A DNA stretch of 20,000 bases from Bacteroidales bacterium (GCA_035389045.1 DAOORA010000020.1:45669-65668), one strand, 5' to 3'; positions 2,748 to 19,700 are shown, counted from the stretch's first letter. Numbers and translations: made by a program. Notes: generated by a model from the letters alone, not told the origin.

Positions 2748-3494
2748 ATGCCAAAAACCAATAATTCAGGCAGTTCCGTAAATAATAAAGGAAAGCTTTA
2801 CCTGCTTCCTGCCACCCTGGGTGATGATTCGGATCCTGCTGAAGTATTACCACTTCATACGCTGAATATTATAAAAAAATTAGAAGTCTTTATCGTCGAA
2901 GAGCTGAAAACAGCCCGACGTTTTCTCAAACAGGTTGACAAAAATATCATCATTGATACATTGCAAATTCTGATTTACAACGAACACAGCATAAAAGAGA
3001 ACACCGCAAGTTATATAGAGCCTATGCTTGAAGGTAAAGATACAGGTTTGCTTTCCGAAGCAGGAATGCCTTGTATAGCTGATCCCGGAGCAGACATTGT
3101 TGCTGCAGCGCACCGGCAGTGCATCGAAGTTGTCCCGCTTTCCGGTCCGTCGTCACTTTTATTGGCATTAATTGCTTCGGGTTTTAGCGGACAGAATTTT
3201 ACATTCCATGGTTATCTTCCCATAGAAAAAGATAGAAGGGCTAAGAAAATCAGGCAGTTAGAAATACTGTCGCAGCAATACAAACAAACACAAATCTTCA
3301 TCGAAACCCCTTACCGCAACCATCAGATGATACAATCCATCATTGAAAACTGCCGTGAAGAGACTATGCTGTGCGTTGCCTCCGACCTCACCCTGCCGTC
3401 ACAAAAAATCATCTCGCAATCCGTAAAATCGTGGAAAAAAATGACCCCGGACCTTCATAAGCGTCCGGCAGTTTTTCTACTTTTTACTCCCTGA
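2748..3494 (+). CDS. SAM-dependent methyltransferase, tetrapyrrole-methylase fold, RsmI-like family
   Basis: Motifs GKLYLLPATLGD, VEELKTARRFLK, GLLSEAGMPCIADPGA, VVPLSGPSSLLLALIASGFSGQNFTFHGYLP, FIETPYRN. Start moved from 2694 to ATG 2748 because the longer version would cover the promoter box and start 6 nt from the divergent gene. Confidence 0.85.
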   Translation: MPKTNNSGSSVNNKGKLYLLPATLGDDSDPAEVLPLHTLNIIKKLEVFIVEELKTARRFLKQVDKNIIIDTLQILIYNEHSIKENTASYIEPMLEGKDTGLLSEAGMPCIADPGADIVAAAHRQCIEVVPLSGPSSLLLALIASGFSGQNFTFHGYLPIEKDRRAKKIRQLEILSQQYKQTQIFIETPYRNHQMIQSIIENCREETMLCVASDLTLPSQKIISQSVKSWKKMTPDLHKRPAVFLLFTP

Positions 3495-3606
3495 TCTGAC
3501 GGACCTTATCCCACAAGGGTAAATTTCATTGGATGTAAAAAGTATCCTGTCAAAAAAAATTCCGAACTTTGAGCCGAAACATGCTTTTTTACATAGAAAT
3601 ACAGCA

Positions 3607-6600
3607 ATGAAGAACACATCACCGCCCAATACTTCCGACGCATTAAAAGCCAATCTCACCGTGACCAGGCCCAAAAAAATTGTGCTGACCGATGAACACA
3701 AATGGTTATTGGGGCTTTCAGCCAATTACTATGGAATTCAGGAACGTACAACGAACTTTTTCAACGAATATCATCATCCTTTTCCCGACCAGAAACTGAT
3801 CAGCGATGAACTCCGGCGCCTGGCACTGGGCGATTTCTGGTTTTATGCTCAGTGCCGTGATAAAGAAAAGGCGCTCAGGATCATATTGGGAATATTTGAA
3901 GAAACTCTCGAAAAAACAAAGGATCAGGTTGTTTTTGAAAGCGTATTTCCGGCATTTGTTGAATACTTAGCCATGATTGCCCGCCATGAAATCCCTGATA
4001 TCGAATTGCTTAAAGCCGGGCTGGGTATAATGAAAAAATGGATCGCCATAAATCATTTGGTGGTACTCAGAAATTCAACATATTTAAAAAATCAGCTCGG
4101 ACTGCTTCATCATAATGAATTGCTTAAAAATGAGTTTTTTCAGCTACTGTATGAACTTGCAGGTAGAGTATTACATTTCTGGGCAGACACTTCGGACGTG
4201 GAAATATGGTACAAAAAGAACAGGGAATATTTAAGCAAAGGTTTTGCCCATGAACTGAGAAATATAGGTAAACCCTATTTTAATAAACTGATTAAGAAGT
4301 GGGAAAGCGTGCGGAATTTTGATGAGCTCGACAAAAACATCCCTCTTTATCAAGAATTTACAGATTATTTTACAAAACATACCGATACTTTTCATGTTAT
4401 AAACGACCGTTTTTATTTTATTGTCTACCTGATGCATATCCCGGGTATGGTTCATATCAAAAACACCCTTCTTGCTGATCTGAACAGGCTGATAAAAAAG
4501 ATGTTTCTGGAGATCAAACCCGAACAGGCCGACCCTTTCCTGGATAATATTTTTTCACTTTTTCATGAATTACACAAAGAACATAGCTCCACGGTATTGG
4601 ATTGTGTTTTAACTTTAGGAAAAGAAATTATCCACACTGACCATGAAGAAAATATTCAGAAATTTGTTCAAAAGCTCATTGGGCTTCCGTTCGTAGTACC
4701 CGGTAAGCTGAGACTCAGCAACGAATGGAGAACGATGGTTGATCCCGGTCATATAAAAAACATCCGTGTATGGCTGGAATTATTCGAAACGGCTCCTGAC
4801 CAATATTCGAAACTCATCGCTGCACTCACCGTGAACCTCAAACTGAACGGTATTTTTATTTTCGACACCGACCTGTTCCAGAAAGATGTAACTGCACTGC
4901 TGAATTCAGATATCCAAAAATATTTCAGGCTTGTCAAACAGCTTTGCCGGATATTTCCGGTATATTTCAATGAGATAGGCGCTGAAGGAGAGTTACGGGA
5001 CATCACAACAGCCATTGATGAACTTACGAGCCGTCAGGACAAACTCATCCACTTTCTGCGAAAACAGGTGCATATTGAAAGCAACAACACCCATATCGAA
5101 CTAACCCGAAAGATCTATAATTTTTGGATAGACGGACAAATCGACAATCTGAAACCCTTATTACCTGAAGATGTACTGGCAAACATCAGCCCAAACGGGA
5201 AATGGGTAGCACCCATGCATAAACTCATTATGAAGGTGGCTGAAAAAGCCCACATAAAACAGGCCACCGAACTATTAGAAGAGCATCCTGACAAAATAGA
5301 CAAACTGGTAAACACCATTACCGGCGAACTACCGGCAAACAAAATAAGACTCATGATGTTATGCCGGCTGTATTATTTGCTTATTGAAAAATACTCATTC
5401 AATACGGTCAACATCACAAAAAGCATCCTGAAATATAATTTTATTCCACATTCGGAGGTCGAAGCACTGGAGGATGCTTTGTCGAAAAAGAACAGGGAAG
5501 CCGCTCTTACATATATTTTCAGCTTTATCAGCCTTCTCAATAAAGTTATACTGCAGGAAGAAAAAACTGAAGGATGGGAAAATATTTATCACAAGCGGCA
5601 TGTTGCATTCGGAATCCCTTCCATGTATGGGGAGTACCATGAACGTCGTTTTGAAGCGCTGGGACTGATCTACAAATTGGAACAGGCTGCTTTGCTGATC
5701 ATGGAAGAATGGGTGAAATCCATCAACCTGAATTACATTACCGCCAAAACTCTCGAAAAAATTGCTTCCGTACTGCAACTATATAAAGAAGGTCTGTTGC
5801 TGGACGGTATTGAAAACAATGCGTTCAATTCAAACCTCAGCATGTTCGATTATAGTTTGAAATCGCAAAGTTTTTCGCTGGGTCAGTACACCAATATTTT
5901 CGGTTTCATGGGAGAAAATATCCGTGAGATCATCAGTAAATATTTTTTCAGGCCTTATGAAGAAGTCCTGAAAATTGTGATCCCGCGGATGCCTGCCAGG
6001 CAACGCATTGATGGCCCCGATGTACAGAGTTTTCTGCATATGCAATCTGAGTCATTTTACCGGGATATGCTGTCCTCCTCGTTTTTATTGCAGAGCCTCG
6101 ATAACTTTATCACTACCGTGCTGACCTCCCTGCGCAGTATGATGGACAATTACAGCATAGATAAGATCCGCGACATCATGTCGTACAACCCTGATATGGT
6201 GATCAGTACGCTGTATGACCAATCAAAAAATATTGACAACCAGGTATATATCGGATCGAAAGCCTATTACCTCAAGAAGCTGTATTCATTAGGATACCCG
6301 GTACCGCCCGGATTTGTTATCACTACCGAGGTTTTCCGGCGTATTGACACGATACTCCAGAACAAAATGATGAGCCGGGAGATTGACAACATGATCATGG
6401 CCCAGATAAAAAAACTGGAAAAAATGACAGGCCAGGAATTTGGCAATCCCAGAAACCCGTTGATGCTTTCCGTACGTTCAGGCACAGCCGTATCGATGCC
6501 CGGCGCGATGAATACTTTTTTAAATGTGGGTATCAATGAGAAAATCATTGAAGCGCTCAGCGTGCAACCCAATTATGGCTGGACTTCATGGGATTGCTAT

Positions 6601-7704
6601 CGCAGGTTCCTGCAGAGTTGGGGTATGGCATCAGGACTGACGCGCGACACCTTTGACCAGATCATGATTGATTTCAAGAAGATGTATAATGTAAAACAAA
6701 AAGTACAGTTCACAAAAGAGCAAATGAGGGAGATATCCTTTGGTTACCGTGAGGTTTTGCAGAAAAATAACATCCAGATCGAAGAAGAAGTATTTCCGCA
6801 GATCAGACAAGCCATTCTGAATGTTTTTGATTCATGGAATTCCGACCGTGCCATAGTGTACCGCAAGCATCTTCAGATTGCAGATGAATGGGGCACCGCC
6901 GTAGTTGTCCAAAAGATGGTGCTCGGAAACATCAATTATACATCAGGAACCGGCGTAGTGTTCACTCATAATCCTCATATGAATAAGCCGGGTGTCCATT
7001 TATACGGTGATTATTCACTGGTCAGCCAGGGTGAAGACGTAGTTGGCGGGCTGGTTCATGTACTTCCTATTTCTCGAAATCAGACACACGGTCGCACCAA
7101 AGAAAGCTCTCTTGAAGAAAAATTTCCTGAAACATACAGGCGGTTATACGAAATTGCATGTGAACTGACTGAAAAACATGGCTTCGGACACCAGGAAATT
7201 GAGTTCACCTTTGAAACTGAGCATAAGAAGGATCTGTACATACTTCAAACCCGCGACCAGGACGTCCGTCCCAAGGACAAAACACACCAATTTGCCCTTA
7301 CCGGCGTAAAAATGAAACTGCTTGGACAAGGCATAGGAATTGGCGGAGGATCATTGAACGGTGTACTGATCTTTGATACCGAAGATATGGAACTGATGAG
7401 AAACAAATACCCGGATAAAAAACTCATATTGGTCAGGCCGGACACTGTACCTGACGACATTGGCATTATATTCGGATGCGACGGACTGCTTACCGCACGC
7501 GGCGGAGCGACCTCACACGCTGCAGTCACGGCTGCACGATTAGGAAAAATATGTATTGTCAACTGTACCGACCTGACGGTTTACGAACGGGAGAAAAAAT
7601 GCGTAATCAAAAAACAAGTATTAAATGTTGGCGATGAAATTGCTATGGATGGCACATTCGGAAATATTTACAAGGGCAAATACCCTTTGATGCAACCCGA
7701 ATAA
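3607..7704 (+). CDS. PPDK-like dikinase: ~880-aa unknown N-terminal region + ATP-grasp nucleotide-binding domain + phospho-His swivel domain; no PEP/pyruvate TIM barrel
   Basis: IGSKAYYL..LGYPVPPGFVITTE (from ~6250), LSVRSGTAVSMPGAMNTFLNVG, WDCYRRFLQ, QGEDVVGG, EIEFTFE...LYILQTR, and GGATSHAAVTAARLGK (His codon 7516-7518). The protein stops right after the His domain. ATG 3607 preferred over the TTG at 3529. Confidence 0.85.
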   Translation: MKNTSPPNTSDALKANLTVTRPKKIVLTDEHKWLLGLSANYYGIQERTTNFFNEYHHPFPDQKLISDELRRLALGDFWFYAQCRDKEKALRIILGIFEETLEKTKDQVVFESVFPAFVEYLAMIARHEIPDIELLKAGLGIMKKWIAINHLVVLRNSTYLKNQLGLLHHNELLKNEFFQLLYELAGRVLHFWADTSDVEIWYKKNREYLSKGFAHELRNIGKPYFNKLIKKWESVRNFDELDKNIPLYQEFTDYFTKHTDTFHVINDRFYFIVYLMHIPGMVHIKNTLLADLNRLIKKMFLEIKPEQADPFLDNIFSLFHELHKEHSSTVLDCVLTLGKEIIHTDHEENIQKFVQKLIGLPFVVPGKLRLSNEWRTMVDPGHIKNIRVWLELFETAPDQYSKLIAALTVNLKLNGIFIFDTDLFQKDVTALLNSDIQKYFRLVKQLCRIFPVYFNEIGAEGELRDITTAIDELTSRQDKLIHFLRKQVHIESNNTHIELTRKIYNFWIDGQIDNLKPLLPEDVLANISPNGKWVAPMHKLIMKVAEKAHIKQATELLEEHPDKIDKLVNTITGELPANKIRLMMLCRLYYLLIEKYSFNTVNITKSILKYNFIPHSEVEALEDALSKKNREAALTYIFSFISLLNKVILQEEKTEGWENIYHKRHVAFGIPSMYGEYHERRFEALGLIYKLEQAALLIMEEWVKSINLNYITAKTLEKIASVLQLYKEGLLLDGIENNAFNSNLSMFDYSLKSQSFSLGQYTNIFGFMGENIREIISKYFFRPYEEVLKIVIPRMPARQRIDGPDVQSFLHMQSESFYRDMLSSSFLLQSLDNFITTVLTSLRSMMDNYSIDKIRDIMSYNPDMVISTLYDQSKNIDNQVYIGSKAYYLKKLYSLGYPVPPGFVITTEVFRRIDTILQNKMMSREIDNMIMAQIKKLEKMTGQEFGNPRNPLMLSVRSGTAVSMPGAMNTFLNVGINEKIIEALSVQPNYGWTSWDCYRRFLQSWGMASGLTRDTFDQIMIDFKKMYNVKQKVQFTKEQMREISFGYREVLQKNNIQIEEEVFPQIRQAILNVFDSWNSDRAIVYRKHLQIADEWGTAVVVQKMVLGNINYTSGTGVVFTHNPHMNKPGVHLYGDYSLVSQGEDVVGGLVHVLPISRNQTHGRTKESSLEEKFPETYRRLYEIACELTEKHGFGHQEIEFTFETEHKKDLYILQTRDQDVRPKDKTHQFALTGVKMKLLGQGIGIGGGSLNGVLIFDTEDMELMRNKYPDKKLILVRPDTVPDDIGIIFGCDGLLTARGGATSHAAVTAARLGKICIVNCTDLTVYEREKKCVIKKQVLNVGDEIAMDGTFGNIYKGKYPLMQPE

Positions 7705-7730
7705 CAGGGATTATACACCCTGTTACTTTA
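7702..7730 (+). terminator. Stem-loop overlapping the stop codon of the PPDK-like gene (weak terminator or mRNA stability hairpin)
   Basis: taacaggg-attataca-ccctgtta, perfect 8-bp stem (7702-7725), followed only by cttta, a poor U-tract. Confidence 0.35.
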
Positions 7731-7831
7731 TGCAAGAACGGTCATCATTGATAATAAAATACAATTAGTGAAATAACCATAAACATAAAACATATTAAAT
7801 AATATATTAATTAATTAAATTATTGTGAAAC

Positions 7832-9085
7832 ATGAAAGCGGAGATAAAAAACAAGAATTATTTAGGCATTAACAGTCTTGGCAGAATTGGCAAATTAACG
7901 CTTTGGAACCAACTCGTCACGCGTCATTTCGATGGAATAGTCATTAATCTTGGCCGTAAAACGGGAAAAAAAATTGAAGATCTTGTACAGGCACTTGGAA
8001 CCGACTCAACCTACGGCGACCTGGGAAATTTTCTTTACGGACAAAAATCAAGGCGTGATTTGATAAATATAGTGGATTCCGAACAGTATCTGTTTGACAT
8101 TGACGGTATGCCGGTGAAAGTCCTTACGGAAGAGCGAAATCCGGCTGCTGTACCATGGAAAAAGGAACAGGTTCAGATTGTAGTAGATTGTACGGGGCAA
8201 TTTACGGATCCCACCCTTGCTCCTGACAGCCCGAAAGGAAGCCTGCGCGGACACCTGGAAGGCGGTGCGCGTAAAGTGATTGTGAGCGCTCCCTTCAAAA
8301 TAAAGGAAGCAGGGAAGAAAATGCCCGACGACAGTATTATGATGGTTTTTGGCATCAATCACCTCGAATATGACCCGCTCAGACACCACGTAATTTCTGC
8401 GGCCAGTTGCACCACCACAGGCTTATCGCATATGATCAAACCGCTGATGGAGGACCGTTTCACTTCAAAAATTCTCACGGCTTCCATGTCGACCGTACAT
8501 GCAGCCACCAACACGCAAAGTGTCCTCGACGCCTTACCCAAATCCGGCGCCAGCGATCTCCGTAAGACCCGTTCTGTTTTTAATAATATCATTCTATCCA
8601 CCACAGGGGCAGCAAAAGCGCTGGAATCCATCATTCCGCAGATACAGGAAATTGGTTTTATGGCCGATTCGGTACGCATTCCCACCTCCACAGTGTCTAT
8701 GATAACACTGAATATTACCTTTAATTCAGGTCTTGATGAAAAAGGAAATCCCATTATCAACCATAAGCATATCAATAATATCTATAAAAGCGCCGCCGAA
8801 GGGCCTCAAAAAGGGCTGCTGGTATTTTCAGAAAAACAGAATGTGTCAACCGACCTCCTGGGTTTCAGGGCAGCTATTGTCATTGAAGGCCACGAAAGCC
8901 ACACCCGTACAGGCTTCATCAAACTGCCGGCAGAAACGGTAAAGGCGCTGGGCGTCAAAAGTCCGGTTGATATCAATATACCAGTGACACATGCCAAAAT
9001 ATTCGGCTGGTACGACAATGAATTCGGGAGCTATGTCAACCTGCTCGATAAGCTGACATGTTACATCGATCAGCATATCCGTTAA
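7832..9085 (+). CDS. gap: Divergent type I glyceraldehyde-3-phosphate dehydrogenase family protein (417 aa)
   Basis: LGINSLGRIG Rossmann motif, VDCTGQFT, HLEGGARKVIVSAP, catalytic SAASCTTTGL (Cys193), TVHAAT (His223), STTGAAKA, SVRIPTSTVS, WYDNEFG. Confidence 0.8.
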   Translation: MKAEIKNKNYLGINSLGRIGKLTLWNQLVTRHFDGIVINLGRKTGKKIEDLVQALGTDSTYGDLGNFLYGQKSRRDLINIVDSEQYLFDIDGMPVKVLTEERNPAAVPWKKEQVQIVVDCTGQFTDPTLAPDSPKGSLRGHLEGGARKVIVSAPFKIKEAGKKMPDDSIMMVFGINHLEYDPLRHHVISAASCTTTGLSHMIKPLMEDRFTSKILTASMSTVHAATNTQSVLDALPKSGASDLRKTRSVFNNIILSTTGAAKALESIIPQIQEIGFMADSVRIPTSTVSMITLNITFNSGLDEKGNPIINHKHINNIYKSAAEGPQKGLLVFSEKQNVSTDLLGFRAAIVIEGHESHTRTGFIKLPAETVKALGVKSPVDINIPVTHAKIFGWYDNEFGSYVNLLDKLTCYIDQHIR

Positions 9086-9124: not shown

Positions 9125-10393
9125 ATGTCAATATTACTCAGCAACGCCACTTACATAGACTACCAGACACTGGAATTTATACCATGTAACATCATTATTG
9201 AAAGCTATCCCTATTCCACTATTGTTTTTACTGAAAAACAGGACAACGGCGCCGATACTAAGGTTGATTGTTCAGGGAAATATGTCACACGGGCATTTGG
9301 CTGCGGACATCATCATGTATATTCGGCGCTTGCAACAGGAATGCCCGCTCCCAAAAAAATCCCGTCGAATTTTTTAGAGATACTGCAATACGTATGGTGG
9401 ACACTGGATAAGTGTCTGGATAAAGAAATGATTGAGATCAGCGCCCTGGTCACCGCCATCGAATGTGCCAGAAATGGGGTAACCTGTGTGGTGGACCATC
9501 ACTCCTCTCCTTTCGCCATTGAAGGTTCACTCGAAATAATAGCCAAAGCCTTTGATCAGGTAGGCATATCACATCTTTTGTGTTATGAAATTTCCGACCG
9601 CGACGGAGAACAAGCAGTGAAACAGTCACTTGACGAAACAGCGGATTTTCTTTCACACAGGCAGGGACTAGTAGGTCTTCATGCCTCATTTACCGTATCT
9701 GACCAAACACTCAGGCAGGCAAAGGAGCTTACCGAAAAATTTGACACGGGTATTCATATCCATGTTGCTGAGGATGAGTTAGACGAACGATTATGTGTTG
9801 AACATCAAGGCAAACGGGTTGTTGAACGTTTGAACGACCACGGACTGCTGAAGAATAACAAAACGATACTGAGCCATTGCTTATACATCAACCATAAAGA
9901 AAGAGAGATAATAGGCAAATCGGGAGCCTGGATTGCACAGAATACCGAAAGCAACATGAATAACAAGGTTGGATTTTTCAATTCGGAAGGAATAAAAAAG
10001 AATATTATGCTTGGCACCGACGGCATGCACAGCGACATGCTGAAAAGTGCAAAAACAACTTTTTTTGCAGGTCAGAATTTTGATAAAATTGATTATGCCG
10101 AAACCTACCGCCGTCTCAGAAATGTTAATTTCTATTTTAATGAAAACGGTTTTTCCGGTGATGCCGATAACAACCTGGTAGTGCTTGACTATAACCCATA
10201 TACAGAGTTCAATTCAGGGAATTTTTTAGGTCATTTTATTTTCAGCATCGAATCAAAACATGTTCAGCATGTGATATCTGATGGCAGACTCATCGTCAAA
10301 GACCGCAAGGTTATTACAGTGGATGAAGATGAGATACACAAAGCCAGCAGGGAATTAAGCAAAAAACTCTGGAACAAAATGAAAGAACTTTAG
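9125..10393 (+). CDS. ssnA: SsnA-like metal-dependent amidohydrolase
   Basis: HxH motif in CGHHHVYSALATGM, followed by NFLEILQYVWWTLDKCLD, VVDHHSSP, GLHASFT, HIHVAED and LGTDG; these segments match the SsnA subfamily pattern. Confidence 0.75.
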   Translation: MSILLSNATYIDYQTLEFIPCNIIIESYPYSTIVFTEKQDNGADTKVDCSGKYVTRAFGCGHHHVYSALATGMPAPKKIPSNFLEILQYVWWTLDKCLDKEMIEISALVTAIECARNGVTCVVDHHSSPFAIEGSLEIIAKAFDQVGISHLLCYEISDRDGEQAVKQSLDETADFLSHRQGLVGLHASFTVSDQTLRQAKELTEKFDTGIHIHVAEDELDERLCVEHQGKRVVERLNDHGLLKNNKTILSHCLYINHKEREIIGKSGAWIAQNTESNMNNKVGFFNSEGIKKNIMLGTDGMHSDMLKSAKTTFFAGQNFDKIDYAETYRRLRNVNFYFNENGFSGDADNNLVVLDYNPYTEFNSGNFLGHFIFSIESKHVQHVISDGRLIVKDRKVITVDEDEIHKASRELSKKLWNKMKEL

Positions 10394-10480: not shown

Positions 10481-11860
10481 ATGCCTCTCCTGATAAAAAA
10501 CCCGCTGATTGTCAATGCCGGTGAAAGTAACGTAGCCGATATCCTTATAGATAAGGGTATTATCGTTGAGATTTCCGGAAATATTGATGCCGGGAACCAT
10601 CAAATTATAGATGCAGGAGGTCTGTATGCCTTTCCCGGCGGCATCGATCCTCACGTACACCTGCAACTGCCAACACCGGCCGGAAATTCAAGTGATGATT
10701 TCAGAAGTGGTACCATTGCGGCTTTAGCGGGAGGAACTACAACCATCATTGATTTTGTGACCCCCAGGCGCGGGCAGTCGCATACCGAAGCCCTACGGTT
10801 GCGAAAATCAGAAGCGACGGCATCCCTGACCGATTACAGCCTGCATGGCAGCATCGTTTCGCTGAATGAAAATACAGAGGATGAAGTACGTATCTGCATA
10901 GAAGAAGAAGGAATTACTTCTTTTAAAACGTACCTGGCATACCGTAACACGGTTGGTATCAATTATGAAATGTTGCGCCAGGTAATGCAAATAGTTAAAA
11001 AACATAACGGACTGGTCACCATTCACTGCGAGGATGGCGATGAGATCAGCCGTCTGCAGCAGGATTTCGTTTCAAAAGGACTAACATCCCCGCTATACCA
11101 TGCGTTATCGCGCCCCGAATACACCGAATATGAAGCGGTGGCCGAAGTCCTGAAACTTTCTCAGGAAACCGGATGTAATGTTTATATTGTCCATGTTTCA
11201 GCAAAAAGAAGCATGGAACTTATTGCGCCCTGCAGATCTTCGGGAAAGGTATTTGCCGAAACCTGCCCGCACTATTTGCTTTTAGACGACAGCAATTATC
11301 AAAAGCCCCTCCCCGGCTCACTAAAATATGTGATAAGCCCGCCAAATCGAAATAAGGAAAGTATAGAAGCCCTGTGGCAACATATCACAGATGGAACCAT
11401 TGACGTACTTTCGACCGACCATTGCCCGTTCCACACCTTTGGTCAAAAAGATACCGGCGCTGATAATTTCACCCTGATACCCAATGGCGCAGGGGGTATT
11501 GAATACCGCCTTGCCCTTTTGTATACTTACGGAGTGCTTGAAAAAAGAATTTCTCTTAACCGTTTTACAGAACTTACTTCAACCAATGCTGCGAAAATTT
11601 TCGGGTTGTATCCTCAAAAAGGTATCATCGCCGTAGGTTCCGATGCAGATATGGTGTTATGGAATCCTGGTGCGGAAGGGATCATCTCCCGCAAGACACA
11701 ATTTCAAAACTGTGATTCAAATATCTATGACGGGATTCCTGTTAAAGGGTCACCGGAGTATGTCATCTGTGGCGGAAAAATAGCCTTCGCACATGGAAAA
11801 GCAGTTACAGAAGGGTTACATGGGAGATTTCTTAAAAGGCTACTGCGCCGGATGATTTGA
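10481..11860 (+). CDS. hydA: Dihydropyrimidinase / D-hydantoinase (HydA/HyuA family)
   Basis: PGGIDPHVHL, AALAGGTTTIIDF, SFKTYLAY (carbamylated Lys), IHCEDG, YIVHVS, AETCPHYL, STDHCPF, IPNGAGGIE, AAKIFGLYPQKG. Confidence 0.9.
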   Translation: MPLLIKNPLIVNAGESNVADILIDKGIIVEISGNIDAGNHQIIDAGGLYAFPGGIDPHVHLQLPTPAGNSSDDFRSGTIAALAGGTTTIIDFVTPRRGQSHTEALRLRKSEATASLTDYSLHGSIVSLNENTEDEVRICIEEEGITSFKTYLAYRNTVGINYEMLRQVMQIVKKHNGLVTIHCEDGDEISRLQQDFVSKGLTSPLYHALSRPEYTEYEAVAEVLKLSQETGCNVYIVHVSAKRSMELIAPCRSSGKVFAETCPHYLLLDDSNYQKPLPGSLKYVISPPNRNKESIEALWQHITDGTIDVLSTDHCPFHTFGQKDTGADNFTLIPNGAGGIEYRLALLYTYGVLEKRISLNRFTELTSTNAAKIFGLYPQKGIIAVGSDADMVLWNPGAEGIISRKTQFQNCDSNIYDGIPVKGSPEYVICGGKIAFAHGKAVTEGLHGRFLKRLLRRMI

Positions 11861-11895: not shown

Positions 11896-11945
11896 TTATA
11901 AATCGCCAAAACTGATATTTTTTGTGTACATTTGGCGATTTATAA
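11896..11945. repeat. Palindromic site A (15-bp arms, 20-bp spacer) containing the TACATTTG promoter box of the ATPase gene
   Basis: ttataaatcgccaaa (11896-11910) and tttggcgatttataa (11931-11945) are exact reverse complements. TACATTTG at 11927-11934. ATG follows at 11962. Confidence 0.85.
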
Positions 11946-11961
11946 CCAATATAATAATAAG

Positions 11962-13374
11962 ATGAAACTTATTGGCAGAGAACCTGAAAAATCAATACTT
12001 GAGCAAGCATTAAGAAGCAGGCATGCCGAGCTCATTGCAGTATTTGGAAGAAGGAGGGTCGGGAAAACATACCTGGTTCAACACGTTTACAAAAACGATT
12101 TCATTTTTGAGTTTTCAGGAATTTTGCACGGCACCCTGAAGCAGCAACTCGACAATTTTCATCTTACCTTAACCCGAAAAAAAAGAAAAATAAAAAAACC
12201 GGCTAACTGGCTTGAAGCATTCAGCCAACTTATTGAAATCATTGAATCATTATCCCTTAAAAAAAAGAAGGTGATTTTCATGGATGAATTTCCCTGGCTC
12301 GACACCCGGAAATCAGGATTTCTGGCTGCCTTTGATAACTTCTGGAACAGTTACGCAGTGAAAAACAAAAACCTGGTGGTGGTTATTTGCGGATCAGCAG
12401 CATCATACATGATCCAGAAGATTATTAACAATAAAGGCGGCTTGCACAACCGCATCACGCAGAAGATACGCCTGCTTCCTTTTACACTGAAAGAATCGGA
12501 GCAATTTTTAAACTATAATAATGTAAAATTTACCCGCTACGATATTTTGCAGCTATATATGGCCATGGGCGGAATTCCTTATTATCTCGGTAAAGTGTCA
12601 CCCGGTGAAAGCGTACCGCAGAATATTGACCGCTTATGTTTCACAAAAGACGGCGCACTGAGAACAGAATTCAATACTGTTTTTACATCCTTGTTTGAAG
12701 TGCCCCACAATCATGAGCTCATTATCCGGATTCTTGCATCAGTACGCAAGGGATTGACAAGAAATGAAATGCTGAAAAAAATGAAAACACAAACCGGCGG
12801 CGGTATCACAAAAACGCTCATGGAACTTGAAGAATCCGGATTTATAGAAAAATACCTGCCTTACCTGGGTACTAAAGATTCTTTATACCGCCTGACCGAC
12901 GAATATTCGTTGTTCTATTTAAAATTTATTGAACACTCGAAACCATCCAGACACGGCGTCTGGCAGAGTATGTTCAACAATGCATCATACAGGTCATGGG
13001 CCGGTTTTTGTTTTGAATCGGTTTGTATCAAACACATTGAGCAGATCAAAGAAGGCTTGAAAATTGCCGGAATAAAATCCGAGCAGGGAAGCTGGCTGGA
13101 CAAAAAGCAGGAAAACGGGGCACAGATAGACCTGTTGATCGACCGCGCAGATAATGTAATCAATATATGCGAAATTAAATTTTATAATTCCGCCTTCACT
13201 ATCGATAAAAAATATGCCGGCGAACTGGCAAAAAAGACAGCTGCTTTTTCGAAAAGCACCCAATCAAAAAAAAATATCCGGATAACACTGATAAGCACGT
13301 ATGGCTTGATACCAAACAAATACAGCAGGCAATACGTCCAGAATGAACTAACAATGGATGATTTGTTTGTATAG
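11962..13374 (+). CDS. AAA+ ATPase (archaeal-ATPase-like) with winged-helix region and C-terminal PD-(D/E)xK-like domain (DUF234/DUF4143-type architecture)
   Basis: MKLIGREPE start typical of the family. Walker A GRRRVGKT, Walker B VIFMDEFPW, ICGSAAS, GGIPYYL, helix-turn-helix-like GLTRNEMLKKM...GGITKTLMELEESGFI, nuclease-like QIDLLI...CEIKF. ATG 11962 preferred over TTG 11932, which lies inside the promoter palindrome. Confidence 0.85.
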   Translation: MKLIGREPEKSILEQALRSRHAELIAVFGRRRVGKTYLVQHVYKNDFIFEFSGILHGTLKQQLDNFHLTLTRKKRKIKKPANWLEAFSQLIEIIESLSLKKKKVIFMDEFPWLDTRKSGFLAAFDNFWNSYAVKNKNLVVVICGSAASYMIQKIINNKGGLHNRITQKIRLLPFTLKESEQFLNYNNVKFTRYDILQLYMAMGGIPYYLGKVSPGESVPQNIDRLCFTKDGALRTEFNTVFTSLFEVPHNHELIIRILASVRKGLTRNEMLKKMKTQTGGGITKTLMELEESGFIEKYLPYLGTKDSLYRLTDEYSLFYLKFIEHSKPSRHGVWQSMFNNASYRSWAGFCFESVCIKHIEQIKEGLKIAGIKSEQGSWLDKKQENGAQIDLLIDRADNVINICEIKFYNSAFTIDKKYAGELAKKTAAFSKSTQSKKNIRITLISTYGLIPNKYSRQYVQNELTMDDLFV

Positions 13375-13725: not shown

Positions 13726-16700
13726 ATGAAAACAATTAAAATCATTGCTCTTATTCTTCTGGTGTCGGTGACTGCCATTGCAGTAAAATCAGTCATTCCG
13801 GCTTTTTTTTCTGAGCGGTCGGCCGGCGTAATGATCTCTCCAAACGACGACTATAATAAACTCTGGGCAAAAGCCGATTCGCTGCTTAACAAAGGCCTTA
13901 CACGCTCGGCTATAGAAGTGGTTCAGGTGATTTACGAAAAAGCCAAACTGGAAAATAATACCGGAAATTTCGTTAAAGCCGTCACCTATAAACTCCGGCT
14001 CGAATCTTATATCAGCGAGGATGATTATGTTAAGGAAATCAATGATCTTAACAAAGAAGCCGCTGAAGCACGCTTTCCCATCAAGCCGGTAATACATTCG
14101 ATGATCGCCGAAGTATACTGGAAATATTACCAGAACAACCGGTACAAGTTTCTGAACCGTACCGAAACAGTGGATTTTGTTCCTGAAGATATCAGGACAT
14201 GGGATCTGAGAAAGATCGTGGAACAATCGATCAAATATTATCAGTTGTCACTCGAAAATGTCGATAGTCTAAAAAATACATCCATAAATGTGTATGATGA
14301 AATAATTGTGAAACAAGGCGGCGATTCAAAAAATTTCAGGCCAACACTTTATGACTTCCTTATACACCGTGCCATAGATTTTTTTGCAAACGAAGAGCCG
14401 GGACTGGTAAGCCCTGTCAACCGTTTTGAGATTGACAAAGCTGAATTTTTTGCCCCCTATGATTCATATATCATTTTCCAGATAAAAACGAATGACAAGT
14501 ATTCATTGAATTATTATGCAGCCAGGTTGTTTCAGGATCTGCTTGACTTCCATAAGAACGATGCCGACCCGCGATCACTTATTGATAACGATTTGAAGCG
14601 CCTGAAATTTATGAAGCAAAAATCTATAAACCCTGATAAGGATACCTTATTCATGCAGGCACTTGAAACGCTCAATAAAAAATTTGAATCTTTTCCGGCA
14701 TCTTCTGAAGTGATTTATGAAATTGCCAATTATTATTACCAACAGGGCGCTACCTATGCATCAACCAACGACGAGTCAGATCGCTGGAAACTTAAAAAAG
14801 CTTATGAAATCTGCGACATAGCTATTAAAAAATTCCCGGATGCTTTCGGATCAAACAACTGCAAATACCTGCAGTCAAAGATCAGGGAGAAATCGCTGAC
14901 TTTTACCAGCGAAGAAGTAAATGTCCCCGGAAAGCCTTTCAGGGGTCTTCTTTCCTACCACAACCTGAACAAGGTGTATATCAGGATTTGCAAGGCAGAT
15001 TACAAATGGTATGATAAACTGATCAGTCAGTATTATTACGATGACAAACTTATCCAGCCTCTACTTAAACTTACTCCGCAAAAAACATTCAGTGTGGATA
15101 TTACAACCCCCGGGGATTATCAAAGCCATTCGGCAGAAATCAAAATTCCCGAACTGGAAGCCGGTTTTTACGTGATACTTATCGGAACCGATGCCGGTTT
15201 CACATATAACACTGAAGCCATAGCCTATTCCAGTTTCTGGATGTCAAACCTGTCTTACCTGAAGCGCACAACAGAGAGCGGAAAGACTCAGTTCGTCGTG
15301 ATGAACCGCGAAAACGGGCAAGCAGTCAAAGGGGTTTCGGCACAGGTTTACAACGAAATATACAACTATGCGTCACGCCGGTATGAATACCACAGCGGTC
15401 CGGTCTATTTAACCGATGAGAACGGTATGTTTGAGGTTGTTTCTACGTCTAACAACTACAATAATTCATATATTGAATTCAATTATTCAAATGATAAGCT
15501 GAAATCAACCGTTTTTTACCAGTATAAATCGTATAAAAATGAAAAAAAGAAATACAACAGGACTATATTCTTTACGGACAGGATGATATACCGCCCCGGG
15601 CAGACAATTTATTTTAAAGGAATATTGCTCGAAACCGACGGTGAAAATTCAGTAATAAAGCCGGGCATAGAAAGCAATGTTGTTTTTTATGATGTCAACT
15701 ATCAGAAAGTTTCGGAAATAAAACTCACCAGCAATGAATACGGTACATTTAGTGGTTCTTTCACCATACCCACCGGCTTGCTCAACGGTCAGATGCACAT
15801 TGCAGATAACTGGGGCAGCATATATTTCTCTGTAGAAGAATATAAACGCCCGAAATTTGAAGTGAAATTTGAACCTGTGAAAGGATCGTACAAACTGGGT
15901 GAGAAAGTAACCGTTAAGGGTACGGCCGTTGCCTATGCGGGCTCCAATATCGATAATGCACAGGTAAAATACCGTGTGGTGCGTACGGCACGTTTCCCGT
16001 ATTGGTGGTACTACTGGTACGGATATTACCCGAATTCGCCACAGATGGAAATAACTAACGGAAACACCACTACTGATGATAAGGGCGAATACACCATAGA
16101 ATTTACCGCCATACCGGATTACAAGGTCAGCCGAAAATCCGACCCTGTATTCTCTTATGTGATCTATGCTGACGTTACTGATATCAATGGAGAAACACGC
16201 TCCTCGCAGACCACGGTGAACGCCGGTTACAAAGCGCTGATGGTGGCCGTTGGATTACCCGGCGAAATAGAAAAAAGCAGCAAAGACCCCTTTGTCATTT
16301 CTACAACCAACCTGAGCGGCACGTACGAATATGCCACAGGCAGCATCATCATCCACAAGCTGAAACAACCGGAGAAACTATTCCGCAGCAGGTTATGGAA
16401 AGAACCCGATATAAAACTTATTTCGAAAAATGATTATTATCAATGGTTTCCATATGACCTTTACGAAGATGAAAATAACACCTCCAGGTGGGCCAAAGAA
16501 AGCAAAGTAATGGAATACGACTTCGATACAGAGAAAGATTCGCTGATGCATATTCCGAACCTTTCCACATGGCAATCAGGGCAATATGTTCTTGAGATCA
16601 CTTCGGTTGACAAATTCGGTGAAAAAGTTCAGGCCTTCATCTATTTTACAGTATATTCAAAAAACGATAAAACCATACCTGTAAACGATTTTGCATGGTT

Positions 16701-19700
16701 TGCAACCATCAAAGCCAAAGGTGAACCAGGCGAAGAAGCAACTTTTCTTGTAGGTACAAAAGAGCTGAATGTACACGTACTTATGGAAGTGGAAGTAAGG
16801 AATACCATCGTGCAGAAACAATGGCTCAAATTAAACAATGAATTAAAAAATATCAATATACCTATAAAAGAAGAATACCGCGGCAACTTTGCAGTGCACT
16901 TCACTTTTATCCGCCAGGGCAGAGTGTACCGGTATGATGTTAACGTAGAAGTCCCTTATACAAACAAAGAGCTGGATATTAACTTTGAGACGTTCCGCAA
17001 CAAACTGGAACCTGGCCAGAAAGAAGAATGGAAAATCAGGATAAAAAGTAAAAACGGAGAAAAAGCTGCTGCAGAGATGCTTGCGGGTATGTATGATGCC
17101 TCACTGGACGCCTACCGGTCAAATTCCTGGTATCTGGCACTCTTCAGCAATTTCTACATGAGACAGCAGTGGGAAACATCCAATGGATTTTCCACAGAAG
17201 TATCAAACATCTACACCGTGAACTGGAACCCATACGTATATTTTCACTACCGTTATTATGATTACCTTAACTGGTTTGGCTATGACAGTTATTATTACCG
17301 CTATGCTAACAGAGGAGATTATGAATATGATTATTTTGAAGCCAATCAACCGGTATCTATGGATGAAGTGGTTACTGCCGCTGAATCAACCGGAGGAAAA
17401 AGAGTTGCAAAAACTGTTTTGGCACAAGGCCAGGCTGGCGGAATGACAGAAGCTGCAGACAACATCGATAGCAGAGAAAAAAAAGACGATTCTTACAAAA
17501 CGGCAAACACAGGATTGTTGGATGGAACTGTAGCAGGCGAAATTGCAAAAGACAAAGATCTGAATTTCAGCGATATAAAAACACGTACCAATTTTAACGA
17601 AACCGCATTTTTCTATCCTCACCTGCTCACCAACGAAAACGGAGAAATTATAATTTCTTTCACCGTGCCCGAAGCGCTTACAAAATGGAAATTCATGGGA
17701 CTTGCCCATACCAAAGATCTTAAAATTGGCACTATACAAAAGGAGGTGCTTACACAAAAAGACCTGATGGTTGTTCCTAACCCTCCCCGCTTCTTCCGCG
17801 AAAACGACCGTATCGTTTTTTCCTCTAAAATAACCAATCTCTCAGCAGACTCAATAAACGCCTATGCCACCTTAATGCTTTTCAATGCGGAAACCCAGCA
17901 GCCTATTGATGTATTGACAGGCAATACCGATCAGGTGAAATGTGTTGGCATACCCAAAGGACAGAGCAAGGCGGTAGAGTGGTCAATATCCATACCCGAG
18001 AACATTCCGGCCATCACTTACAAAGTTGTGGCCAAAGCCGGAAACTTCACCGATGGCGAGGAAATGATCATTCCTGTTTTAACAAACCGTATGCTGGTCA
18101 CCGAAACCATGCCGCTACCCATACGCGGAAACCAGGTTAAGAATTTCAATTTCGAAAAACTCATCAACGCATACAAATCCAACACACTGAAAAACTATAA
18201 ACTTACTCTCGAATTCACATCCAACCCATCGTGGTATGCGGTTCAGGCGCTCCCATACATGATCGAATATCCCTACGAATGTACCGAGCAGATATTCAGC
18301 CGTTTTTATGCCAACAGCATTGCTACTTACATCGCTAATTCCAATCCTAAGATCAGGGAAGTGTTTGACAGCTGGAAAAACATCACACCAGACGCCTTGT
18401 TGTCAAATCTTGAGAAGAATCAGGATCTTAAATATGTAATGTTGCAGGAAACCCCCTGGGTGCTTGAGGCAAAAAGCGAATCGCAGTCGAAACGCAATAT
18501 CGGCATTCTGCTTGAAGAAAAACGAATGAAAACCGAGATTGAACGCGCTCTGAAGAAACTCGAAAAATTACAGGTCTCGAACGGAGGATGGACATGGTTC
18601 CCCGGCATGCCCGACGACCGTTATATCACACAACATATCATCACAGGATTCTGCCACCTTGACAAGCTTGGGGTCAGGGACATCCGCGATCAGTACAAGG
18701 TATGGAACATGGTCAAAAGAGGTTCTCATTACCTTGATGACCGTATCCGAGAGGATTATGAATGGCTGTTAAGATATGATCCGGATCACATGTTTGAAAA
18801 TCACCTTGGTGGAATACAGATACAATATCTTTATGCCCGAAGTTATTTTATTAAATCTATCCCTGTTGAAGCAAAGAATAAAAAGGCTTTCGACTATTAT
18901 TTCGGGCAGGCAAAAAAATACTGGTTACAAAACAACCGTTACCTTCAAGGCATGATAGCACTGTCTTTGAACCGTCTGGAAGAAAAAATAACAGCCACAG
19001 ACATTGTAAAATCGCTCAAGGAAAATGCAATCTTCAGTGAAGAAATGGGCATGTACTGGAAAGATATGGATTACGGATATTATTGGTATCAGGCGCCTAT
19101 CGAAACACAGGCGTTGCTGATCGAATGTTTTGATGAAGTAGCCAACGACAAACAGTCGGTCGAAGAAATGAAAGTCTGGCTGCTCAAACAAAAACAGACA
19201 CAAAACTGGAAGACGACCAAGGCAACAGCGGAAGCCTGTTACGCTTTGTTGTTAAGGGGGACAGACTTCCTGGCCAACGACCCGCAAGTCAGCATAACAC
19301 TTGGAGGAATGCTTGTAGATCCAAAGAATTTGCCCGATGTAAAACAACAGGCAGGAACAGGCTATTTCAGGACATCATGGCTGGAAGATGCCATAAAACC
19401 AGACATGGGAAAAGTGAAAGTTACAAAATCGGATGATGGCATTGCTTGGGGGGCACTATACTGGCAATATTTTGAACAGCTGGACAAGATCACGCCTGCT
19501 CAGACACCCTTAAAGATTGAAAAGAAACTGTTTGTAGAACGTAACTCAGACCATGGCCCTGTGATAACTCCCATTACAGATGATACCAAACTGAAACTCG
19601 GCGACAAGATAAAAGTGCGTATTGAACTCCGTTCAGACCGCGATATGGAATACATCCACATGAAAGACATGAGGGCCAGCGGATTTGAACCCATCAATGT

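Follow-up and report, generated by a model that had tools for sequence, protein, structure and literature searches.

Which acceptor is served by a dikinase that has the catalytic chassis of pyruvate phosphate dikinase (PPDK) and no pyruvate-binding barrel? The question is raised by a gene in a 20,000-nucleotide stretch of DNA from a Bacteroidales bacterium (GCA_035389045.1, DAOORA010000020.1:45669-65668; hereafter the window, with positions counted from its first letter). A sequence-only reading of the window had proposed that the product uses a new acceptor and that an automatic PPDK label would be wrong; source databases name the protein 'pyruvate, orthophosphate dikinase'. The features of the locus are as follows.

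3607..7704, + strand: barrel-less PPDK-like dikinase, whole gene, 1365 aa
3607..4683, + strand: weakly conserved helical-repeat region, residues 1-359
4684..6216, + strand: conserved all-alpha core, residues 360-870, the proposed acceptor (third) active site, from invariance and a stand-alone model
6232..7257, + strand: PPDK-type ATP-grasp nucleotide-binding domain, residues 876-1217, from Pfam, NCBIfam and PPDK alignment
7312..7680, + strand: phospho-histidine swivel domain (PEP-utilizers mobile domain), residues 1236-1358, from Pfam and PPDK alignment
7516..7518, + strand: codon of His1304 within GGATSHAAV, aligned to the catalytic His of PPDK (GGMTSHAAV)
7705..7831, no strand: AT-rich spacer of 127 bp between the dikinase and GAPDH genes
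7832..9085, + strand: 'long' glyceraldehyde-3-phosphate dehydrogenase (GAPDH) paralogue, 417 aa, dedicated partner, from profiles and alignments

A TTG at 3529 opens a frame of 1391 aa and the ATG at 3607 one of 1365 aa, ending at 7704; homologue alignments begin at the latter methionine. The ~150-kDa product matched the Pfam families PPDK_N (PF01326; best stretch 917-1172, 122 bits against a cut-off of 27) and PEP-utilizers (PF00391; 1271-1350, 57 bits against 23.1), and no match to PEP-utilizers_C (PF02896), the PEP/pyruvate TIM barrel, was obtained in the protein. PPDK was the top match both in the PDB (E 2.5e-73) and in NCBIfam. In phmmer alignments to the solved Clostridium symbiosum PPDK, residues ~878-1217 corresponded to PPDK 15-338 and residues ~1237-1359 to PPDK 390-510. 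The protein ends 6 residues past the position aligned to PPDK 510, the end of the His domain, bearing out the earlier statements that the frame stops at this boundary and that the barrel is absent. The next gene begins at 7832, 127 bp after the stop at 7704, as had also been stated; its identity as a GAPDH had been missed. No convincing terminator was found in the spacer.

All the motifs named in the sequence-only reading are present in the translation, namely the retained ATP-grasp motifs IGSK, SVRSG, QEIEFTFE and LQTRD together with QGEDVV, GGATSHAAV and WDCYRRF. Moreover, K885, R957, E1197/E1199, Q1214/R1216 and T1302-S1303-H1304 were invariant in all 16 aligned sequences; the ATP-grasp Lys, Arg, Glu and Gln residues presumably play the catalytic roles of their PPDK counterparts. 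Homology thereby establishes that the ATP-grasp domain is of the PPDK type and is accompanied by a swivelling phospho-His domain, every catalytic motif being intact. On the PPDK model TIGR01828, the protein scored 367.4 bits, below the cut-off of 843.45 and confined to positions 12-335 of 865, so the database label fails the curated threshold of that family. The ATP-grasp domain scored far higher on this model (367 bits) than on the PEP synthase models (94 and 81 bits), which fits the earlier placement in the PPDK branch, and the enzyme would be expected to use Pi/PPi branch chemistry.

The candidate acceptor site lies in residues 1-870, for which no Pfam family matched. Two AlphaFold2 models of the N-terminal region (pLDDT 91.4 and 93.6; pTM 0.87 and 0.91) were all-helical with just two beta-hairpins, the stand-alone model of the core (residues 360-870) having pLDDT 93.6 and pTM 0.91. 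The large unrecognized helical region described earlier was thus recovered, and it is not a PEP/pyruvate barrel. With the whole N-terminal region as the query, no specific relative was found among solved structures. Conservation mapping in homologues, which had been suggested, yielded 14 invariant core positions (D420, P451, R464, D471, R485, K486, H489, K595, Y596, K663, H665, S672, G675 and G734), and the five N-terminal patches proposed beforehand proved real, containing D420, R464, D471, R485, K486, H489, K663, H665, S672 and G675. These D/R/K/H/Y/S/G/P positions (420-734) persist in 66-72 sequences, down to ~17-20% identity, and are kept in a distant 13-member branch. The combination of invariant polar, Gly and Pro positions with confident models makes the domain look like an enzyme, while residues 1-359 may serve as a scaffold or oligomerization module. 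A hemerythrin domain is fused at the N-terminus in 2 of the 17 distant members scanned, which is equally compatible with a sensing or regulatory protein and with an enzyme under regulation.

More than 1000 clusters of whole-protein homologues (1034 found) share this length and layout, which argues that the architecture is not due to chance. Nearly all of the best 120 of the 1034 homologues measured ~1357-1371 aa, and 116 of the 120 listed carried both Pfam domains, the other four being shorter, partial and matched by PPDK_N only. The dikinase was present in 40 of 401 sampled genomes of the source organism's order and in roughly 107 of 381 sampled Thermodesulfobacteriota genomes, with at least 740 matching stretches in a one-genome-per-species collection. 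Our literature search found no paper on a barrel-less, GAPDH-linked dikinase family; the family is large, widespread and unstudied.

The strongest clue to the acceptor is the GAPDH neighbour. Across 79 loci (78 plus the source locus), a GAPDH gene adjoins the dikinase in 69, with the long type immediately downstream in 41, a canonical type immediately upstream in 26 and variants of these two arrangements in 3. Nine loci lacked GAPDH; six of these were cut by contig ends, and three (L007, L052 and L054) had both flanks present and no GAPDH nearby. The other neighbours at the source locus recurred in none of the 78 loci. A distant Thermodesulfobacteriota branch has a GAPDH within 1.5 kb of the dikinase at 24 of 25 loci; the long type occurs at 23 of them, the short type at 14 and the two together at 13. 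The long gene is adjacent even when convergent, as at 13 of the 23 loci. Furthermore, the long GAPDH occurred in 21 of the 401 genomes, all of them among the 40 dikinase carriers and none among the 361 others; in one carrier, it lies ~120 kb from the dikinase (G231). A FastTree phylogeny of 67 dikinases, in which midpoint rooting served for drawing only, placed the canonical-GAPDH arrangement within the long-GAPDH arrangement at two separate places in Bacteroidota. This nesting suggests that the dikinase became associated with the GAPDH family anew, and not through inherited synteny alone. Comparative genomics shows that the dikinase works together with GAPDH. Short metatranscriptome contigs from two studies, 100% identical to the source DNA, map on both genes and provide a weak hint that the dikinase and the long GAPDH are expressed.

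Two different GAPDHs flank the dikinase gene in many genomes. At L036, the stop of the short GAPDH and the start of the dikinase share an 8-nt overlap, and the long GAPDH comes next in order. Aligned to Thermus GAPDH (1cer), the long GAPDH of the window retains the catalytic Cys193 and His223 and the phosphate-site residues, and the TTGAAKA segment is likewise kept; we take Thr179, Arg231, Thr208-Gly209 and the S-loop arginines to form the phosphate site of type I GAPDH. Because C193, H223, T226, R244, R247, R282 and the WYDNE motif are invariant in all 41 long and short partners, the substrate of the partner is, on sequence grounds, a phospho-triose. The long type scored 295.7 bits on the TIGR01534 equivalog, below the cut-off of 367.2, and carries ~80 extra residues in seven insertions. 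At the NAD-specificity position, it reads V-I/V-N-[LVAIC]-G-R, whereas short partners read G-I-N-D-L; the long type lacks the acidic residue, presumably equivalent to Asp32 of GAPDH, which we take to select NAD over NADP.

We are therefore fairly confident that the protein is a dikinase with a new acceptor, functionally coupled to GAPDH. In the mechanism that we propose, ATP would pyrophosphorylate His1304, Pi would remove the outer phosphate as PPi in the manner of PPDK, and the swivel domain would carry His~P to a third site, formed by the new all-helical domain (residues ~360-870) instead of the TIM barrel. There, the invariant Asp/Arg/Lys/His set may hold Mg2+ together with an acceptor that is small and strongly anionic, most likely 3-phosphoglycerate (3-PG). 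The reaction would read 3-phosphoglycerate + ATP + Pi <-> 1,3-bisphosphoglycerate + AMP + PPi, an assignment to which we give somewhat less than an even chance, the acceptor being read from the gene neighbourhood alone. Such an enzyme would form a PPi-linked parallel to phosphoglycerate kinase (PGK), feeding or fed by the adjacent GAPDH; we favour the gluconeogenic direction, and the reverse direction would yield ATP from AMP + PPi. By textbook standard free energies, the dikinase route would be ~15 kJ/mol more favourable than PGK for activation of 3-PG, and PPDK and PEP synthase aid the pyruvate-to-PEP step in the same way. PPi-PFK and PPDK are the other PPi-linked enzymes of the glycolytic/gluconeogenic trunk. 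We advance only with caution the fuller picture of a 3-phosphoglycerate,phosphate dikinase as the third of this kind, passing a labile acyl phosphate to a dedicated, perhaps NADP(H)-using GAPDH.

The dikinase is no replacement for PGK, since each of the 40 dikinase carriers in the 401-genome sample retains PGK; the source genome has two PGK matches. Unless regulated, PGK and the dikinase together could run a futile cycle with the net conversion ADP + Pi -> AMP + PPi. Pathway context compatible with 3-PG was rare in the 104 loci searched (glycerate kinase in 1, 2-hydroxyacid dehydrogenase in 2, PGK in 1). The individual cases are anecdotal: L060 encodes, on one strand, glycerate kinase, the dikinase, the long GAPDH, a 2-hydroxyacid dehydrogenase and an MFS transporter, and in G681 the dikinase is divergent to pgk-tpiA.

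The presence of PGK, which already serves the 3-PG step in these genomes, bears on a competing interpretation in which the same chassis phosphorylates another triose, glycerate or cofactor-pool acceptor (glycerate, glyceraldehyde or glyceraldehyde-3-P, hydroxypyruvate, NAD+ to give NADP+, or Pi to give a second PPi), with GAPDH as a pathway neighbour and not the direct consumer or producer. We consider this possible, if on the unlikely side. Only the neighbourhood constrains the identity of the acceptor, and the products reported for relatives equipped with different acceptor domains (rifampin phosphotransferase, hydroxyphenylethanone kinase, MarK and TalE) are simple phosphate esters or phosphoramidates. 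Cofactor chemistry could matter for a long GAPDH devoid of the NAD-specificity acidic residue; an NAD synthase gene follows the dikinase at L050, and aldehyde dehydrogenase genes follow the dikinase-GAPDH pair at L039 and L040. Nevertheless, all these context genes are rare, whereas GAPDH is the sole neighbour conserved across phyla. Both GAPDH types retain the residues for catalysis and phosphate binding that mark a phosphorylating glyceraldehyde-3-P dehydrogenase, and 3-PG is the most directly shared metabolite able to take a phosphoryl group and become the GAPDH substrate.

A regulatory role, in which His~P or the helical domain phosphorylates or gates GAPDH or another protein, appears improbable to us. 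Its precedent is the mycobacterial VadK, which according to a preprint depends on ATP and Mg to autophosphorylate on His422 and co-immunoprecipitates with enzymes of the methylcitrate cycle (bioRxiv 10.1101/2025.10.30.685616). The hemerythrin sensor domain of the two distant members points the same way, and strict pairing with a dedicated seven-insertion GAPDH and the 8-nt overlap at L036 would be in keeping with a physical complex. A domain of 870 residues with 14 positions invariant to ~20% identity, however, resembles a small-ligand catalytic site rather than a docking surface, and VadK has no such domain. Moreover, the dikinase scored 286.8 bits on NF004531 (PRK05878), below the cut-off of 456; this 534-position model, labelled pyruvate, phosphate dikinase in NCBIfam, has the size of the two shared domains, and we assume that it represents VadK. 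Hardly credible is an ordinary PPDK or PEP synthase with its barrel supplied in trans, or a decayed remnant of one, despite the database label and the strongly PPDK-like ATP-grasp and His domains. No barrel gene lies in the neighbourhood and, in favour of the earlier reading, no separate barrel subunit co-occurs over the 79 loci, GAPDH being the sole conserved neighbour. The source genome encodes a separate, full PPDK with its barrel, and in five further host genomes the 13 matches to PF02896 all belong to frames 564-1081 aa long, as long as ordinary EI, PEPS or PPDK proteins are. The intact frame and the strongly conserved N-terminal domain, along with the nearly fixed length of the homologues, argue against gene decay.

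Although the glycolytic and gluconeogenic trunk counts as fully mapped, a large share of anaerobes carries this large GAPDH-adjacent enzyme, and the pairing suggests an undescribed step in lower sugar metabolism. Action at the 3-PG/1,3-bisphosphoglycerate node would alter how energy is budgeted and metabolism modelled in fermenters, syntrophs and sulfate reducers and would bear on the source of PPi in PPi-dependent glycolysis; a 3-PG dikinase would offer energy-limited anaerobes a thermodynamic bypass of PGK or, together with PGK, a PPi-making route. Even with another acceptor, the protein would add a new catalytic domain to the phospho-His dikinase toolkit.

Among known systems, PPDK (EC 2.7.9.1; TIGR01828; 1KBL/1DIK) shares the ATP-grasp and swivelling phospho-His domains with all motifs, and probably also the Pi/PPi partial reaction; the dikinase differs in having an 870-aa all-helical N-terminus instead of the TIM barrel and GAPDH as its conserved partner. 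PEP synthase (pyruvate, water dikinase) runs through the same three steps of phospho-His chemistry and its His domain is homologous, but it has a barrel and an ATP-grasp of another subtype; membership was rejected (TIGR01418, 81 bits against 740; NF005057, 94 against 598; no barrel). Rifampin phosphotransferase (RPH) follows the same logic of ATP-grasp, swivelling His domain and family-specific acceptor domain, although the acceptor domains differ. The domain order of RPH also departs from that of the dikinase, with the RIF-binding domain placed between ATP-grasp and His domain, and the reaction is water-dependent, giving AMP + Pi. On NF041857 (RPH), the dikinase reached 33.3 bits against a cut-off of 999, in the ATP-grasp part only. 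With RPH there is precedent for this chassis acting on acceptors other than pyruvate (PMC4844700).

VadK (Rv1127c) likewise joins a PPDK-derived ATP-grasp and a His domain without a barrel; the preprint describes an actinobacterial protein of two domains only, with a reported mass of ~50 kDa, and proposes it as a regulatory kinase of the methylcitrate cycle (bioRxiv 10.1101/2025.10.30.685616). The dikinase adds the conserved 870-aa domain and pairs with GAPDH. The prodiginine ligases PigC, RedH and HapC combine PPDK-like ATP-binding and phosphotransfer parts with another substrate domain (PMC13534948); they belong to secondary metabolism, have no GAPDH link and gave 26-37 bits against cut-offs of 1300-1350 (NF052631 and NF052632). 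PGK (PF00162) is a functional analogue only, with no homology: under the leading hypothesis, both enzymes would interconvert 3-PG and 1,3-bisphosphoglycerate beside GAPDH, PGK with ADP/ATP and the dikinase, as proposed, with AMP + PPi / ATP + Pi.

We placed the start of the dikinase gene at the ATG at position 3607; the alignment of its homologues begins at its Met. The Pfam domains of the protein and genes of the window are as follows.

Features of the window (residues are those of the dikinase)
3607-7704, + strand: dikinase gene, 1365 aa from the ATG at 3607, within a 1391-aa frame opening at TTG 3529
Residues 917-1172 (best stretch): PPDK_N, Pfam, 122 bits
Residues 1271-1350: PEP-utilizers mobile domain, Pfam, 57 bits
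7516-7518, + strand: codon of His1304, from a coordinate check
7832-9085, + strand: long GAPDH, 417 aa
2694-3494, + strand: TP_methylase/RsmI-like protein, 110 bits against an RsmI equivalog cut-off of 168
9125-10393, + strand: SsnA-like aminohydrolase, NF005540, 379 bits against a cut-off of 444
10481-11860, + strand: D-hydantoinase/dihydropyrimidinase, 497 bits, above the TIGR02033 cut-off
11932-13374, + strand: ATPase_2/DUF234 protein (archaeal-type ATPase), 480 aa, between hydantoinase and macroglobulin
13726-19929, + strand: bacterial alpha-2-macroglobulin, 2067 aa, with MG2, bait-region, A2M and bMG10 domains

The sequence-only reading had described a dikinase that keeps its catalytic motifs, lacks the pyruvate barrel and ends at its His domain, and our analysis upheld this description. 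The motifs IGSK, SVRSG, QGEDVV, QEIEFTFE, LQTRD, WDCYRRF and GGATSHAAV were all present in the translation. A Pfam scan of the whole protein detected no PEP-utilizers_C barrel, and neither Pfam nor NCBIfam matched residues 1-870, in agreement with the roughly 880 unrecognised N-terminal residues proposed earlier. By alignment, residues ~878-1217 correspond to positions 15-338 of the Clostridium symbiosum PPDK and residues ~1237-1359 to positions 390-510; the C-terminus lies 6 residues past the last PPDK-aligned position, at the end of the His domain. The 127-bp gap to the next gene, which starts at 7832, was likewise confirmed.

The top solved-structure matches of the dikinase are PPDKs (E 2.5e-73); against TIGR01828, the PPDK model, it scores 367 bits, below the cut-off of 843. 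By this curated cut-off the label 'pyruvate phosphate dikinase' is wrong, as had been anticipated, and an ordinary PPDK is a very improbable reading. The scores also fell below the cut-offs of NF004531 (534 positions, labelled pyruvate, phosphate dikinase; 287 bits vs 456), the PEP synthase models (81-94 bits vs 598-740), the rifampin phosphotransferase model (33 bits vs 999) and the prodigiosin ligase models (26-37 bits vs 1300-1350). Furthermore, the same genome encodes, in a 928-aa frame, a complete barrel-containing PPDK as a separate protein. The ATP-grasp domain is clearly of the PPDK subtype, from which we infer that the second partial reaction would turn Pi into PPi. Two further atypical PPDK_N proteins lie ~9 kb apart on contig C32 of this genome (L086:199-3165 and L087:46-3156); one is 988 aa long, the other at least 1036 aa. 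In both, 430-485 residues at the N-terminus are unassigned, and no mobile His domain or barrel was recognised.

AlphaFold2 modelled residues 1-880 from a 66-row alignment as an all-helical structure (pLDDT 91.4, pTM 0.87) with two beta-hairpins at ~369-377 and 657-678, bearing out the helical character suggested from sequence and showing no TIM barrel, a fold that had been named as a possibility to check. The core, residues 360-870, modelled alone with pLDDT 93.6 and pTM 0.91. A Foldseek search of the whole 1-880 model against the PDB returned only generic HEAT-/karyopherin-like repeats (best E 6.8e-4, TM at most 0.19), a profile of the N-terminal sequence found nothing below E 0.08 among all PDB chains, and the ESM Atlas gave only unnamed clusters (0.76-0.85). 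As these searches yielded no specific relative, we call the fold unassigned rather than new. Within the core, D420, P451, R464, D471, R485, K486, H489, K595, Y596, K663, H665, S672, G675 and G734 are invariant across 66-72 sequences with identity down to ~17-20%, and they are likewise invariant among the 13 members of a separate distant branch. These positions lie within the candidate patches proposed earlier, which mapping onto homologues substantiated; residues 1-359 are conserved far less than the core. The Asp/Arg/Lys/His set resembles a Mg2+-dependent phosphotransfer site and may accommodate a small anion.

The dikinase is a real, widespread and uncharacterised feature. A word-indexed search, in which 8000 candidates were scored, found at least 1034 clusters matching residues 1-870; 116 of the 120 matches listed carry both Pfam domains and measure 1357-1400 aa, the other four being shorter and partial. 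Exhaustive HMMER with the N-terminal query on 50%-identity representatives returned 439 proteins at E <= 0.001, of which 162 reached E <= 1e-30; long proteins among them again measure ~1350-1540 aa. In a collection of one genome per species at least 740 of at least 746 pattern matches encode a relative. Hosts include Bacteroidota, Bacillota, Atribacterota, Thermodesulfobacteriota, Myxococcota, Calditrichota, Cloacimonadota, Chlorobiota and the candidate division CSSED10-310. Occurrence within the window's order is patchy (40/401 sampled genomes, 25/236 genera), with one full-length copy per carrier; in genome G273 it is in two pieces on separate contigs. Among the matches listed for a distant-branch profile in 381 sampled genomes from the phylum to which the Geobacter-type genome G406 belongs, those of ~107 genomes reach into the N-terminal domain; the others are ordinary PPDKs. 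Two of the 17 distant members scanned (P0184 and P0176) carry a hemerythrin HHE domain fused at the dikinase N-terminus, which suggests an O2, redox or iron input. The homologues P0134 (861 aa) and P0155 (851 aa) comprise only the N-terminal domain, stopping close to its boundary, and neither matches Pfam; either a genuine split of the protein or fragmentation could account for them. The openly accessible full-text literature yielded no paper on the family. A Desulfovibrio PPDK-like gene (Dde_0604/DVU0246), which may or may not belong to the dikinase family, is described in a two-component cluster.

Comparison of 79 loci (78 related loci and the window) showed that the GAPDH gene at 7832..9085 is the only window neighbour that recurs, and GAPDH alone emerged again when all flanking ORFs were clustered without supervision. 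A long GAPDH (~417 aa, 57-82% identical to the window's) lies directly downstream of the dikinase in 41/79 loci, and a canonical GAPDH (~335 aa) directly upstream in 26/79, of which 22 are divergent and 4 on the same strand, overlapping the dikinase start. Three loci are variants (L064 overlapping, L061 with a split ORF, L078 with the gene 4.7 kb away). The remaining nine are without GAPDH; contig ends truncate six of them, and L007, L052 and L054 have both flanks present. A short GAPDH also lies upstream in at least three long-GAPDH loci (L018, L036 and L042); in L036 the end of this gene and the start of the dikinase gene share 8 nt. Moreover, in the distant Thermodesulfobacteriota branch GAPDH occurred within the 1.5-kb flanks in 24/25 loci, the exception being at a contig end; 23 of the 25 have the long form, 14 the short and 13 both. 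Since the long GAPDH is convergent with the dikinase in 13 of those 23, the adjacency persists without co-transcription.

The dikinases of the Atribacterota loci L052 and L049 are near-identical (branch lengths 0.018 each); the long GAPDH between dikinase and bioY in L049 is missing from that place in L052, suggesting that the partner was lost or relocated recently. A rumen Bacteroidales locus has NadE (NAD synthase) directly after the dikinase (L050:12118-12879), with only a short upstream GAPDH. The RsmI-like, SsnA-like, hydantoinase, ATPase, alpha-2-macroglobulin and DUF4139 neighbours, each in 0/78 related loci, were rejected as partners. The combination of an SsnA-like protein and a hydantoinase has precedents in purine and selenium-linked catabolic clusters. 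The RsmI-like protein could be a SAM methyltransferase that is divergent or of a different kind.

Phylogenetic profiling extended the association beyond adjacency. Called at E <= 1e-80 (identities 60-89%), the long GAPDH occurs in 21/401 genomes of the window's order, all 21 among the 40 dikinase carriers and none among the 361 others, which identifies it as a dedicated partner. Five genomes with the canonical arrangement hold 2-3 GAPDH-family matches apiece, and in G001 (locus L058), the sole genome for which coordinates were converted, the dikinase-adjacent copy is the best-scoring canonical one. A FastTree phylogeny of 67 dikinases of at least 1300 aa, from which 12 shorter rows were dropped, has the long-GAPDH arrangement across all phyla and the canonical arrangement nested at two places in Bacteroidota. 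The arrangement labels require 4-5 changes on this tree compared to ~21-22 when shuffled (0/500 shuffles as low), figures to be read with labels shared among kin, a midpoint root for display and local FastTree support, which make any order of the changes tentative. Use of a different GAPDH member at two separate places argues for a functional tie over frozen synteny. Collectively, the dikinase-GAPDH partnership is near-obligate.

The 127-bp spacer contains no terminator, a combined promoter and terminator scan being at chance level. Two metatranscriptome studies contain short contigs that match the window at 100% identity and fall on the dikinase gene (4129-7414), and in one of the two on the GAPDH gene as well; coverage of both genes is patchy, with none at 2864-3919, and gives a weak hint of expression, DNA carry-over being possible. 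A complex prediction for the core, lacking residues 1-359, and the long GAPDH, with alignments for both, was uninformative (ipSAE 0.00 and 0.00, mark 0.32).

The long GAPDH retains Cys193, His223, T226, R244, R247, R282, TTGAAKA and WYDNE; alignment to 1cer gave the classical equivalents Cys149, His176, Thr179, the S-loop arginines, Arg231 and Thr208-Gly209. Apart from TTGAAKA, these residues are invariant in 41/41 partners, long and short forms together. Given the catalytic and phosphate-site roles that we take them to have, the partner should be a phosphorylating dehydrogenase acting on a 3-phospho-aldehyde/acyl phosphate. The long form scores below the cut-off of TIGR01534 (296 bits vs 367) and carries seven insertions, ~80 residues in total. 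It reads V-I/V-N-[LVAIC]-G-R where the short GAPDH reads G-I-N-D-L; the missing Asp is presumably the NAD-selecting residue, whose loss would open the site to NADP(H) and suit a reductive, gluconeogenic role.

The protein combines an intact phospho-His chassis of the PPDK type with a third domain that is conserved, and it is tied to GAPDH; we consider it probable that it serves a new acceptor in a reaction coupled to GAPDH. For the acceptor, our best guess, a tentative one, is 3-phosphoglycerate. ATP would pyrophosphorylate His1304, Pi would take off the outer phosphate to give PPi, and the swivel domain would bring His~P to the helical core, which would phosphorylate 3-phosphoglycerate to 1,3-bisphosphoglycerate for reduction by GAPDH; run in reverse, the system could make ATP from AMP + PPi. 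Three contexts fit this assignment, but are rare. Locus L060 encodes, in this order, glycerate kinase, dikinase, long GAPDH, 2-hydroxyacid dehydrogenase and an MFS transporter on one strand, L028 shares the last two with it, and in genome G681 the dikinase is divergent to pgk-tpiA; among 104 loci, glycerate kinase occurs once, 2-hydroxyacid dehydrogenase twice and PGK once.

Two different GAPDHs flanking one dikinase, which the 3-phosphoglycerate assignment leaves without explanation, count against it, and another small-molecule acceptor is possible, if somewhat unlikely. PGK occurs in 393/401 sampled genomes and in 40/40 dikinase carriers, which rules out the dikinase as a PGK replacement and makes it an addition. 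Together the two enzymes would cycle, with net conversion of ADP + Pi to AMP + PPi, which would be either a problem or a source of PPi. The window's genome has two PGK matches, the second of them divergent (276 bits, C17:58741-59952, locus L080) beside the main one (509 bits), and two matches are also found in several relatives of the same family. A regulatory, protein-directed role appears improbable; control by O2, redox or iron is hinted at by the hemerythrin fusions. This role is a live rival on the findings of a preprint on the mycobacterial barrel-less PPDK relative VadK (Rv1127c), which is reported to autophosphorylate on His and to co-purify with methylcitrate-cycle enzymes and is proposed to be a regulatory kinase (bioRxiv 10.1101/2025.10.30.685616).

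Phosphorylation of 3-phosphoglycerate by the dikinase would also differ energetically from the PGK reaction. Standard free energies are -30.5 kJ/mol for ATP to ADP, ~-45.6 for ATP to AMP + PPi, -19 for PPi, -49 for 1,3-bisphosphoglycerate and -62 for PEP. From these textbook values, activation of 3-phosphoglycerate costs ~+19 kJ/mol via PGK versus ~+4 via a Pi-dependent dikinase, and the dikinase-driven reaction would be exergonic once PPi is consumed. PPDK and PEP synthase use the same energetic device on pyruvate.
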